In this document: positions 34,301 to 37,300 of the stretch, one piece after another | How the letters are laid out: each line of letters opens with the position of its first letter | How positions within the stretch are numbered: position 1 is the stretch's first letter | Assembly: GCF_016026235.1 (NCBI RefSeq) | Contig: NZ_CP065614.1 | Length of the DNA stretch: 64,000 nt | Direction: 5' to 3' (one strand) | From: Escherichia coli | GTDB lineage: Bacteria > Pseudomonadota > Gammaproteobacteria > Enterobacterales > Enterobacteriaceae | Program-made: the position numbers

Positions 34301-37300
34301 TCATTGTCTTTCAGGTGGTTATATGGCCCGTTCAGCTAAACCCCGTAAACGTAAACCCGCCTCTCAAAGAAGCAAACTTCCCCGCTATGTCGTGAAGCTT
34401 CACGAAGATGATTTTTTTGACGAAGAAGACGCAGAAGTTCTGCGCTTTGATAGTTTTGACGATGCCGTTGAATGCTGCGCAGACCTGAATATTCCGTTCT
34501 TTGTGGATGCGGGAAACAAAAAGCTGGTCTTCTGGTTTGTACGTGTTGATGACGAAGGGTATCCGGAAATCGCCCGCTGCACGGAGCGGGAATTTGCGAC
34601 CATTCTTTCCGGTATCAGCGCCGGCGGTATGTACTGCCCGGAGTGTGGCACGGTTCACTGGCCGGACGGAGTCGCCCCGCCCTTCTGATGCTTCCCCGTT
34701 TTGCCGATATCTTTCAGCAGGGAAACCGCTGGCTTAACTGGCTGGAGAAGCAGCCGGAAGGGGCAGTACGTCCGGTGGTGATTGAGTCGGTGACCAAAAT
34801 CATGGCGTGCGGGACCACACTGATGGGGTATACACAGTGGTGCTGTTCATCACCGGACTGTTGCCATACAAAAAAGGTCTGCTTCCGGTGTAAAAGCCGC
34901 TCCTGCCCGCACTGCGGGGTGAAGGCTGGCGCACAGTGGATACAGTATCTGCTGAGCCTGGTCCCCGACTGCCCATGGCAGCATATTGTGTTCACGTTAC
35001 CCTGCCAGTACTGGTCCCTGGTGTTCCACAACCGGTGGTTGCTGGCAGAGATTAGCCGCATTGCAGCGGATGTGATACTGGAAATCTGCCATCAGGCAGA
35101 TGTGGAGCCGGGGATATTCACGGTGATCCACACATGGGGGCGTGACCAGCAGTGGCATCCGCATATCCATTTATCGACAACTGCCGGTGGTGTGACGTCG
35201 GGCCACACCTGGAAAAATCTTCATTTTTACGCCCGTAAGGTGATGAGCATGTGGCGCTACCGGATAACACGGTTACTGTCACGGAAATACCCTGACCTGG
35301 TGATGCCAGATGCGCTGGCAGCAGAAGGAAGCAGTAAACGGGAATGGAATCGCTTCCTGGACACGCATTACCGCCGTGGCTGGAATGTCAACGTATCCCG
35401 GGTGATGGATAATGCCACCCATGTGGCGGTGTACTTTGGCTCTTACCTGAAAAAGCCACCGGTGCCGGTGAGTCGTCTGGAGCATTATGCCGGTCAGGAT
35501 GAAATCGGACTGCGTTACAACAGTCACCGAACAAAACGGGAAGAATACCTGTTGATGAGTGGAGATGAGTTCATGGAAAGGTTCTCCTGGCATGTGGCGG
35601 ATAAGGGGTTCCGTATGGTGAGGTACTACGGTTTTCTGAGTCCGGCGAAACGGCGGTTACTGGAAGAAGTGGTGTACATCATAACGGAGACAGTGAGAAA
35701 AACGGCGATGCAAATCACCTGGAGAGGGATGTATCAGAGGTTACTGAAGGTTGACCCGCTGAAGTGCGTGCTGTGCGGGAGTCAGATGCGTTTTACGGGG
35801 CTGAAGCGGGGCTACCGTCTGGCAGAGCAGGTCCTGATGCATGAGCCGCTGGCCCGGATGCGGTGGTGCGGCTGAGAGCCGCAGAGGGTAAGTAGCGTCC
35901 ATTTTGAGGGAAACGGAGCAAAAAACCGCCATTCATACCCTGAATCAATCAGAGCCATCCAGTTTAATCGTCGGTTCCGTTCATATGAGCAAAAGTGGTG
36001 TTGAAGAAACATCCGTTTTGTGGTGTTTTTTTAATCTTTTTGGGGTTTTAATTCCTATCGATGAACGGAAGACGTTCAGCATAATCCCCCGGAACAGCGT
36101 TTCCTCATTCAGCGGGGCAAGGATAAAGGGGTCCGCTTGGAATTCGGAAATTTTCCCACGCTAAGAGAATTGAGTTAACGAGTGGTTACGTCCAGGCCAG
36201 CTAACTCACTGAACGTAAAGGCTGTACGAAATGTTCTGACCGTCCGATAACCGTCTGGCTTACTTCCGTACATTCCCTTGCGTGGATGTACAGAATTGTA
36301 CGATTTCGGACACCAAAACCGCTGTTATCCCGCCATCTTGGCGATTCCTGAAAGTCATTTATCTAAAAAATAGTCTTAACGTGGTTTATTTTCCGAATTC
36401 CAAGCGGACCCCTCAATAGACAGCGTGAATATCGATGGTTGCGCCACAGGCATGAGCATATTTTGTCAAAGTTTTCATGCTGGCCCCTAAAGGGTTACTT
36501 TCCAGGCGACTGATGGCTGACGGGCGTAACCCCATTCGTTCGGCCAGTGCTGACTTTGTTAATCCCGCTTTTTCTCTCATTTCGTATAACATTTCCACCA
36601 TCTCCAGTTCTTTGTCAGCATCCTCATACCCTTTGACAGCTTCTGGAGTACTGAGTAGTTTTTGCTTTACCTGGCTGAATGGAACACCTTTTACTTTCAT
36701 CAGTTCATCTCCTTCAGACGCATCCTGGCAATTTCAATAGCTTTCGTTGGTGTCTTTTGCGTTTTTTTCACAAATGCATGCAGCAGATAGATTTCGTTAC
36801 CCGTTGCATAAGCGTACAGTGTCCTTGCGATATTTTTATCCCCGACTCTCAGTTCAAAAAGCCCTCCGCCAATTACACGGCTGTGAGGCATTTTCATTTT
36901 GTTACCTTCCTGTTCCAGCCGTTCAATCAGTCTGGTCATACGACCACGCAGATTGTCTGGTAATTCTAGAAGTTCATCCAGTGCGGCCGGGTGAGTAATC
37001 ACATTAAACATATTATAGCCTCCAGAATGACAAAATACACTAAAACAGGAAAATTGCGCAAACAGTAAATTTCATCAATAAATGAAAATACACTCTGAGT
37101 TCGGAGGGGGGCAACTGGAGAAGAGGGATTTTTTGATGCCGCGTTAGCGGCATGGAAGGCGGCACTCCGTTGTTGCATATGGCACAGGAGTAAAACCGCC
37201 GAAGCCCGGCGTAAGCCGGTACTGATTGACAGATTTCACCTTACCCCCGTTACTTTATTCGTACCCCTTATAATGGGGTGTTAGCCAGCCAGACCCGGCA

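Follow-up and report, generated by a model that had tools for sequence, protein, structure and literature searches.

The window, i.e. the whole stretch of 64,000 nucleotides that was analysed, is part of a Shigella/EIEC virulence plasmid (pINV) and carries an intact two-gene operon of the Gp49-HTH (Tad-Ata, N15 gp49-gp48) kind of type II toxin-antitoxin (TA) system, which probably acts in plasmid addiction. The gene pair is real and intact, and it is far beyond chance, given the profile E-values, the low dN/dS ratios and the recurrence of the pair in unrelated genomic contexts. Within a known family of such modules it is an ordinary case, and it is not new, since the RefSeq annotation already records a type II TA toxin and an HTH regulator. 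The features of the locus are collected in Table 1.

Table 1. Coordinates of the TA operon, its upstream elements and the flanking features in the window
Feature	Position	Strand	Remarks
IS91-family transposase ORF	34643..35875	+	Flanks the antitoxin end; ORF list, annotation
Antitoxin gene	36700..36413	-	95 aa, ATG start; XRE-type HTH, N15 gp48 orthologue
Toxin gene	37011..36700	-	103 aa, ATG start; Gp49/Tad-type RelE-fold, N15 gp49 orthologue
Shine-Dalgarno GGAGG	37023-37019	-	7 nt 5' of toxin ATG; read from sequence
Cassette-specific upstream region	37012..37135	-	With candidate promoter/operator; accompanies both genes
Candidate sigma-70 promoter	37034..37061	-	-35 TTGCGC 37061-37056, 16-nt spacer, -10 TGTATT 37039-37034
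Candidate operator for HTH antitoxin	37070..37087	.	18-bp palindrome TTTCAT-N6-ATGAAA; predicted
IncFII replicon backbone remnant	37136..37246	-	111 bp; ~740 bp downstream of repA in IncF plasmids
ISEc20 (IS110-family) transposase	37476..38672	+	ORF; annotation of identical region in NZ_CP065612.1

The gene pair and its family

An earlier note on this DNA had described a 103-aa RelE/ParE-superfamily protein followed, with a 1-bp overlap, by a 95-aa XRE-type HTH protein. Both ORFs are present exactly at the positions given there, on the minus strand, and the toxin stop codon TGA (36702-36700) and the antitoxin ATG (36700-36698) have one base in common (ATGA). The superfamily claim is upheld by a full-length match of the toxin to the Pfam family Gp49 (PF05973, also DUF891 and COG4679; E 1.5e-28, covering positions 1-90 of the 90-position model), which is its sole Pfam match at E <=10. 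The partner consists of an N-terminal segment of ~35 aa and an XRE-type HTH at residues 36-90, with residues 38-90 matching HTH_3 (E 6.8e-12), as expected from the HTH claim; its matches among PDB sequences are to HipB, HigA2 and Streptococcus pneumoniae HigA (6af3_B).

The further proposal that the toxin-first order is a signature of HigBA fared less well. The order itself is as described, but it is common to the PF_RelE (Vibrio cholerae HigB-2), MqsR, BrnT and Gp49 families (PMC11980606, Table 1), and the same source describes the PF_gp49 family as ribosome-dependent mRNases with the toxin preceding the antitoxin. The HMM assignment that the note had called for places the toxin in Gp49/Tad (PF05973), within the RelE/ParE superfamily, and not in HigB proper: neither the Rts1-type HigB model (PF05015) nor the E. 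coli HigB model (PF09907) was matched. HigBA proper, which includes HigB of Rts1 and Proteus vulgaris and V. cholerae HigB-1 (PF05015) as well as the chromosomal HigB of E. coli and Shigella flexneri (PF09907), is likewise toxin-first and likewise combines a RelE-superfamily toxin with an HTH antitoxin. Its toxins are ribosome-dependent mRNases, but they belong to Pfam families other than Gp49 and have weak structural similarity to the pINV toxin (5ycl and 6kml, E ~0.06-0.07).

Three other assignments were also rejected. The mycobacterial TAC system depends on a third gene, for a SecB-like chaperone (PMC3581621), whereas the pINV locus has no such gene 3' of the antitoxin; between 35876 and 36412 there are only ORFs of <=86 aa, and on the strand of the module only ORFs of <=66 aa. 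The RelBE type does not fit a toxin-first order with an HTH protein as antitoxin. In the case of ParDE, RNase-type residues are kept here, the toxin comes first and ParE structures match weakly (E >0.02). The module also differs from vapBC, ccdAB and gmvAT, as the earlier note had pointed out.

It is very improbable that the locus is no TA pair at all, but a phage-derived protein of some other function that lies by chance beside an unrelated Cro/CI-like regulator. The two proteins match PHROG families (E 2.4e-42 and 2.4e-34) labelled "unknown function" for the toxin and "transcriptional regulator" for its partner, and the toxin has no match to any NCBIfam model, where the antitoxin has only sub-threshold HTH matches; these labels and the missing NCBIfam match would suit such a reading. 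However, the predicted RelE fold with its conserved catalytic residues and the translational coupling of the genes speak for a TA operon, as does the preservation of the two-gene unit across phages, plasmids and chromosomes. Pairs of Gp49 and HTH_3 proteins recur both in a chromosome of Buttiauxella and in a contig from the Thermodesulfobacteriota, and later papers refer to the N15 orthologues as a TA system that has been validated (vide infra).

Fold, catalytic residues and phage-plasmid relatives

An AF2 model of the toxin (pLDDT 87, pTM 0.83) has the RelE/BECR fold. Its top PDB matches in Foldseek are HigB(TAC) of Mycobacterium tuberculosis (7nbu_Y, TM 0.79) and S. pneumoniae HigB (6af4, TM 0.75), followed by YoeB and RelE entries. 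Both M. tuberculosis HigB1/HigB(TAC) (Rv1955; PDB 7awk, 7nbu) and S. pneumoniae HigBA (6af3, 6af4) are themselves assigned to Pfam Gp49, and they share with the pINV pair the toxin-first order, an HTH antitoxin, the catalytic residues and the same fold, including a long C-terminal helix (TM 0.75-0.79), although sequence identity to the pINV toxin is only ~25%.

Toxin residues R45, E53, R55, R63, F80, K82, Q85, K86 and K100 align, respectively, with K58, E66, R68, R77, F93, K95, Q98, K99 and K113 of HigB(TAC). E53, R55, R63, K82 and K86 are aligned in both the single-sequence and the profile alignments, and the equivalent of HigB(TAC) N73 is ambiguous, being either K59 or N60. Across 46 homologues, E53, R55, R63 and F80 are invariant and K82 is nearly so. 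In RelE, the equivalents of the catalytic residues are K54, R61 and R81. The earlier note had named a lack of conserved catalytic residues as one finding that would speak against a toxin; E53, R55, R63, F80, K82, Q85 and K86 are all kept. In HigB(TAC), replacement of K58, R68, R77, K95 or K99 by alanine abolishes toxicity, while E66A lowers it partly and Q98A mildly (PMC9098466). Not all Gp49-family proteins are toxic, as M. tuberculosis HigB2 and HigB3 are non-toxic, and these two lack several residues that the pINV toxin keeps (PMC9098466).

The closest relatives of the pair are found on phage-plasmids of the N15, phiKO2 and PhiR46_1 types. The toxin is identical to gp49 of the linear phage-plasmid N15, after which the Pfam family is named, at 94 of 103 positions (91%), and the antitoxin to N15 gp48 at 82 of 95 (86%). 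Gene order, protein lengths (103 and 95 aa) and the ATGA overlap are all the same in the two pairs, but the carriers differ: the N15 pair resides on a linear prophage and the pINV pair on an IncFII-based virulence plasmid. In the papers that cite it (PMC2701414, PMC3606827, PMC5906591, PMC3581621), the work of Dziewit et al. (2007, J Bacteriol 189:1983) is the source for counting the N15 locus among the validated Tad-type TA stabilising systems, and the locus is placed in the "tad-ata" group of toxin-first TA systems.

Purifying selection is strong across the family, as judged from pairwise comparisons of the window copy with seven other plasmid and phage copies, in which dN/dS is 0.02-0.20 for both genes. 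For the antitoxin, an estimate of dS was obtained against PhiR46_1 and the four IncF copies, and in these comparisons the ratio is 0.03-0.08. Synonymous sites are saturated relative to N15 (dS >1.5), and therefore the pINV and N15 lineages of the pair split long ago.

The upstream region

The region upstream of the toxin gene belongs to the cassette, as it is common to the IncF copies that have the pair and absent from thousands of IncF plasmids that do not. Its proximal ~75 bp are also conserved in the N15-type phages. The GGAGG Shine-Dalgarno sequence is found in seven of eight plasmid and phage copies, the E. marmotae copy having GGAAG.

The candidate sigma-70 promoter falls within the stretch that is conserved in plasmid and phage copies alike, and its N15 counterpart reads TTGTGT, a 17-nt spacer and TATATT. 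A strict consensus sigma-70 scan returned no minus-strand promoter at this locus, so that the putative assignment draws on conservation only. The palindrome, a possible operator for the HTH antitoxin, is likewise present in N15, phiKO2 and PhiR46_1 (TTTCAY-N6-RTGAAA overall). The three phage copies have TTTCAC-N6-GTGAAA, whereas the form on pINV, in E. marmotae and in O6:H16 is TTTCAT-N6-ATGAAA; because these forms differ symmetrically, both arms have changed together. The palindromes of pF374-3 and RHB40-C03 are asymmetric (TTTCAT-N6-GTGAAA). Direct repeats of AGTGTATTTT (37032-37041 and 37085-37094) were also considered as operators and were rejected, since the cassette of the IncF plasmid pF374-3 does not preserve the upstream one of the two. 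No RNA family was detected by Rfam in 35800-37600 at E <=0.1.

Replicon context, distribution and probable role

The cassette is normally located just downstream of the IncFII repA/oriR. The backbone remnant next to the upstream region has 90-95% identity to a segment of at least 5000 IncF plasmids, which in records that start at repA usually occupies positions 1597-1707, and it marks the ancestral position of the cassette. In E. coli and E. marmotae, copies lie downstream of repA on IncFII/IncFIC plasmids such as pF374-3 and the ETEC plasmids NC_009786 and NC_014232. These IncF copies have 92-96% nucleotide identity to the window over the genes and promoter, and the same IncFII backbone junction; homology to them ends at the antitoxin stop codon. 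In the EIEC pINV VL7S7, where the backbone segment is contiguous with repA, the copy has the same junction and is 99.9% identical in nucleotide sequence. Whereas the IncF and VL7S7 copies are still linked to repA/oriR, the window copy is cut off at 37246/37247, just before the ISEc20 copy, where homology to the IncF copies breaks, and repA is absent from the whole window. This present setting, detached from the replicon and with IS elements on both sides, was counted against an addiction role.

The same slot is occupied by relBE in the S. sonnei pINV (CP104427.1) and by pemIK in pM217_FII, and the site just downstream of the IncFII oriR can be regarded as an exchangeable slot for different TA cassettes. 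RelBE (S. sonnei pINV, P307) and PemIK (R100-type IncFII) sit in this slot beside the IncFII repA/oriR and the common backbone segment and are plasmid addiction modules (PMC8923223), as the present pair probably is, but they are antitoxin-first, with non-HTH antitoxins and toxins of the ParE/RelE PF05016 type or of the MazF/PemK type. The S. sonnei RelBE is functional, yet under laboratory conditions no influence of it on the maintenance of the plasmid could be detected (PMC8923223), and therefore it is uncertain whether the gp49/gp48-type pair has a measurable role.

Identity over the 835-bp unit is 99.5-100% to 33 pINV-type records, which come from S. boydii, S. dysenteriae, S. flexneri serotype 6 and EIEC, and to one further E. 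coli plasmid. On pINVs, copies with at least 99% identity are confined to these four groups, and tblastn detected no homologue in pCP301 of S. flexneri 2a and no paralogue of the pair within the window. The best-matching record, NZ_CP065612.1, annotates a second toxin-first RelE/ParE pair; this was not found in the corresponding interval of the window.

A role of the predicted TA pair in stabilisation or defence, as first suggested in the earlier note, is plausible, and plasmid addiction is the probable one. By homology, the RelE-fold toxin would enter the ribosomal A site and cleave mRNA under translation, arresting growth, while the translationally coupled second gene would encode a labile antitoxin. 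The N-terminal part of the antitoxin may bind and block the toxin, and its C-terminal XRE HTH dimer may autorepress the operon by binding an operator within the ~75-bp stretch that is conserved around the promoter. On plasmid loss, antitoxin synthesis would end and leftover toxin would poison the cell (post-segregational killing), and the cassette would thus favour the keeping of its replicon and of neighbouring DNA. This pINV lineage inherited the cassette together with its IncFII replicon, and the separation from repA came later.

It is unlikely that the module is active but owes its benefit to defence or competition and not to addiction, either through abortive infection on phage attack or through "anti-addiction" cross-immunity, in which the pINV antitoxin would neutralise the toxin, 91% identical to its own partner, that N15-like phage-plasmids bring into the cell, or the toxin of rival IncF plasmids. 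The location of the closest relatives on phage-plasmids is consistent with such a benefit, and a Gp49-family HigB of a TAC module has been reported in abortive infection (PMC11980606). In PADLOC, the toxin core partly matches the C-terminus of the NsnC model (E 1.3e-7), in addition to matches to generic HTH models, but no dedicated PADLOC model recognises the pair as a defence system. Around 190 IncF plasmids hold only a remnant of the antitoxin gene, without the toxin, which would accord with such a benefit; however, these remnants are broken off within the HTH region at a junction with IS91-like sequence, and look like decay and not like a function that was kept. The steady position of the cassette beside repA/oriR suggests replicon maintenance instead.

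Also improbable is that the cassette is a hitch-hiking relic with intact genes, whose toxin is weak or whose operon is silent and which contributes nothing to the plasmid, persisting as a recent arrival with the IncFII replicon or because it is hard to lose. Its detachment from repA and its confinement between IS91 and ISEc20 point in this direction, as do the weak consensus promoter elements, and both pCP301, which has no cassette, and the S. sonnei pINV CP104427.1, which has relBE instead, persist without it. The lack of a measurable effect of its slot-mate RelBE (PMC8923223) and the inactive TA loci yacAB and orf0111-0112 already present on the S. flexneri pINV (PMC9455713) count for this reading too. 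On the other hand, neither ORF is damaged, nor is the Shine-Dalgarno sequence or the conserved promoter block, the catalytic residues are kept, the 835-bp unit is nearly invariant among the 33 pINV-type records and the E. coli plasmid, and purifying selection across the family is strong, all of which argues against a relic.

The loci treated in published work on pINV maintenance are, for S. flexneri, vapBC, gmvAT, ccdAB, yacAB and orf0111-0112 and, for S. sonnei, relBE; the gp49/gp48-type pair is unmentioned in the pINV papers searched. If active, the pair would be one more factor in plasmid loss and in IS-mediated virulence-gene deletion in the lineages that carry it, and would bear on the stability of laboratory and vaccine strains. 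Its importance is modest, and current understanding is not challenged.

Away from repA, the cassette now lies at a distance of about 2 kb from ospE2 and 5 kb from virF. An unlikely reading is that it is no generic addiction module but a lineage-specific determinant of the architecture and competition of pINV, the lineages concerned being EIEC, S. boydii, S. dysenteriae and S. flexneri serotype 6. It might then guard the virulence-regulator region from IS-mediated deletion, as a relocated vapBC does in S. flexneri, and its antitoxin might cross-neutralise the 91%-identical toxin of N15-like phage-plasmids and that of rival IncF plasmids, and so confer immunity to their addiction.

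Gene order and family assignment

The toxin gene precedes the antitoxin gene, and its TGA stop codon overlaps the antitoxin ATG by one base (ATGA), with a GGAGG Shine-Dalgarno sequence 7 nt 5' of the toxin start. An earlier note had placed a HigBA-like, toxin-first module here, and its coordinates, lengths and overlap agree exactly with the ORF listing of the window, although it gave no strand. No third gene was found between the antitoxin gene and the IS91 transposase gene; the ORFs there are all small (≤86 aa; ≤66 aa on the cassette strand), and homology with other copies stops at the antitoxin stop codon. 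The cassette is therefore the chaperone-less form, as in the linear phage-plasmid N15.

Features of the cassette and its surroundings, in window coordinates
Feature	Position	Strand	Remark
Antitoxin ORF	36700..36413	minus	95 aa, ATG start
Toxin ORF	37011..36700	minus	103 aa, ATG start
-10 element TGTATT	37039-37034		weak but plausible candidate
-35 element TTGCGC	37061-37056		weak but plausible candidate
18-bp palindrome TTTCAT-N6-ATGAAA	37070-37087		candidate operator
IncFII backbone segment, 111 bp	37136-37246		90-95% identity in at least 5000 IncF plasmids
ospE2	39043-39309	minus	
Second IS110-family element	40377-41552		
virF	41982-42791	plus	master virulence regulator

In a Pfam scan, Gp49 (PF05973) is the sole family that the toxin matches, and it does so over the full length (E 1.5e-28). 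It also matches phrog_2523 (E 2.4e-42), and no NCBIfam model matches it. Antitoxin residues 38-90 form an XRE-type HTH domain (HTH_3, E 6.8e-12), and the protein also matches phrog_1373. Among solved structures, sequence matches are to S. pneumoniae HigB (6af3_A) and M. tuberculosis HigB1, or HigB(TAC) (7nbu, 7awk), for the toxin, and to HipB, HigA2 and S. pneumoniae HigA for the antitoxin; a 46-sequence profile improves the toxin's matches to 2.5e-10 and 3e-7. Modules of this kind are already known and already annotated; RefSeq labels the identical proteins as a type II TA toxin of the RelE/ParE family (WP_000483533.1) and an HTH regulator (WP_000865087.1).

Two further matches were seen. The conserved toxin core (residues 43-95, window ~36727-36885) resembles the C-terminal end of the PADLOC NsnC model (positions 229-282 of 293, E 1.3e-7), which suggests that a Gp49-like RNase domain may be embedded in this candidate defence protein. 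P0073, a 111-aa E. coli protein cluster, combines Gp49 and HTH Pfam domains and shares 82% identity with part of the toxin; it represents either a fusion of both genes that is truncated or frameshifted, or a natural gp49-HTH fusion of the type counted in PMC11980606.

Toxin residues, fold and selection

Catalytic residues, whose absence would by the earlier note have refuted the module, are retained. Single-sequence and profile alignments agree in pairing R45, E53, R55, R63, F80, K82, Q85, K86 and K100 with HigB(TAC) K58, E66, R68, R77, F93, K95, Q98, K99 and K113, respectively, and only N73 has an ambiguous equivalent (K59 or N60). In HigB(TAC), alanine at K58, R68, R77, K95 or K99 abolishes toxicity, E66A causes partial loss and Q98A only a mild one; K58, N73, F93, K99 and K113 are all missing from its non-toxic paralogues HigB2 and HigB3 (PMC9098466). 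None of E53, R55, R63 and F80 varies across 46 homologues (42-95% identity), and K82 hardly does. The AlphaFold2 model (pLDDT 87, pTM 0.83) is built like RelE, with a long helix at the C-terminus; its closest PDB folds are 7nbu_Y (TM 0.79) and 6af4 (TM 0.75), followed by YoeB and RelE, and ParE and HigB proper are weak matches.

In Nei-Gojobori comparisons of the window copy with four IncF plasmid and three phage copies, the toxin gives dN/dS values of 0.02-0.20 and the antitoxin 0.03-0.08; the comparison with N15 is saturated at synonymous sites, even though protein identity is about 90%. By this measure, strong purifying selection acts on both genes as proteins.

Gene pair, family, fold and residues all support the earlier reading of a toxin-first TA module. 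The cassette is almost certainly a bona fide gp49/gp48-type TA and most likely a functional type II addiction module. The toxin probably acts as a ribosome-dependent mRNase, the activity under which a 2025 survey lists PF_gp49, likewise with the toxin gene ahead of the antitoxin gene (PMC11980606).

Phage relatives and the upstream region

The nearest characterized relative is N15 gp49/gp48, with the same lengths and ATGA overlap; the toxin is 91% identical to gp49 (94/103, tblastn of phage genomes) and the antitoxin 86% to gp48 (82/95). The Pfam family Gp49 is named after N15 gp49, and the title of Dziewit et al. 2007 speaks of a toxin-antitoxin stabilising system encoded by N15. The gp49-gp48 locus is counted among the Tad-Ata-type modules of that study, which is cited for toxin-first, HTH-antitoxin Tad/Gp49 modules by Makarova et al. 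2009, the Halomonas pZM3H1 paper, the A. baumannii higBA paper and a TAC review (PMC2701414, PMC3606827, PMC5906591, PMC3581621); the pZM3H1 and A. baumannii papers term such modules shown-toxic or validated.

About 75 bp 5' of the toxin ATG are conserved among plasmid and phage copies. The palindrome, which lies in this block together with the candidate -35 and -10 elements, reads TTTCAC-N6-GTGAAA in N15, phiKO2 and PhiR46_1; the pINV copy and two of four IncF copies carry the TTTCAT-N6-ATGAAA form, with both arms altered jointly, and it is asymmetric in the other two. A strict consensus scan calls no promoter at the cassette, so the promoter and operator remain putative. No Rfam family was found in the region. 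An exact 10-nt direct repeat, AGTGTATTTT (minus strand, 37032-37041 and 37085-37094, 53 bp apart), brackets the putative promoter; it is probably due to chance or lineage-specific, since the upstream copy is not kept in the pF374-3 IncF copy.

Plasmid setting and distribution

The window represents DNA of a pINV-type virulence plasmid, and genes around the cassette include senB, a TonB-dependent receptor gene, ospE2 (~2 kb away), virF (~5 kb) and ipaH genes. Copies of the pair on E. coli and E. marmotae IncFII/IncFIC plasmids (92-96% nucleotide identity) lie directly 3' of repA-oriR in conserved orientation, and so does the one in EIEC pINV VL7S7, which is 99.9% identical. The co-travelling unit extends from 36413 to about 37135. 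Window homology to IncF copies breaks at 37246/37247, with the ISEc20 transposase gene beginning ~230 bp beyond, and repA is absent throughout the 64-kb window; the cassette is thus now separated from its replicon.

The site 3' of IncFII repA/oriR and the ~111-bp segment acts as an interchangeable slot for TA cassettes (window 37136-37246; loci L008 5001-7642, L016 2359-4715, L017 1074-4207 and L022 9448-12821). Past the segment, VL7S7 and many IncF plasmids carry gp49/gp48, S. sonnei pINV (CP104427.1) carries relB-relE, pM217_FII has tir-pemI-pemK, and in S. flexneri pCP301 IS1294 follows directly.

At 99.5-100% identity, the 835-bp unit recurs in 34 PLSDB records, whose hosts are S. boydii, S. 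dysenteriae, EIEC or other E. coli, and S. flexneri 64-5500, a serotype 6 strain whose clade groups with S. boydii (PMC9455713). A tblastn search of S. flexneri 2a pCP301 with the two proteins found no homologue, and the pair was not found in the searched pINV literature, which covers vapBC, gmvAT, ccdAB, yacAB, orf0111-0112 and relBE.

That the cassette measurably stabilises this pINV is conceivable but somewhat doubtful, because S. sonnei pINV RelBE, in the equivalent slot, is active yet without detectable maintenance effect (PMC8923223). Less likely readings than an addiction module are a role in defence or anti-addiction, and an intact but idle hitch-hiker. ISEc20 and the second IS110-family element lie between the cassette and ospE2/virF, and a TA at this position could make local deletions mediated by IS elements less favourable, an effect that vapBC reportedly has when relocated in S. 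flexneri (PMC5629016, PMC10383432). Its significance is low, and confined to a candidate role in the pINV lineage of S. boydii, S. dysenteriae and EIEC.

StbA/StbB-type partition genes lie ~15 kb from the cassette (21040-22471), comprising a ParM-like ORF (340 aa as listed; 326 aa in the matching record) and a 138-aa partner, and past them an IS91-family transposase gene is broken by an IS3-family element. The best-matching record, NZ_CP065612.1, carries a second toxin-first pair between IS91 and IS4 (155071-155752; 5072-5753 of locus L003), encoding a 114-aa RelE/ParE-family toxin and a 116-aa "addiction module antitoxin"; the matching interval of the window (20300-27000) lacks it. Finally, many ColV/IncF plasmids, namely p1ColV5155 (L007 3001-3237) and about 190 other IncF plasmids, have retained just a 237-bp remnant, made up of antitoxin codons 1 to about 70 preceded by the toxin gene's final 26 nt. 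In p1ColV5155, the sole copy examined, there is no toxin and the antitoxin frame ends at about residue 72, running into IS91-like sequence; the remnant could reflect decay, or possibly an anti-addiction fragment.
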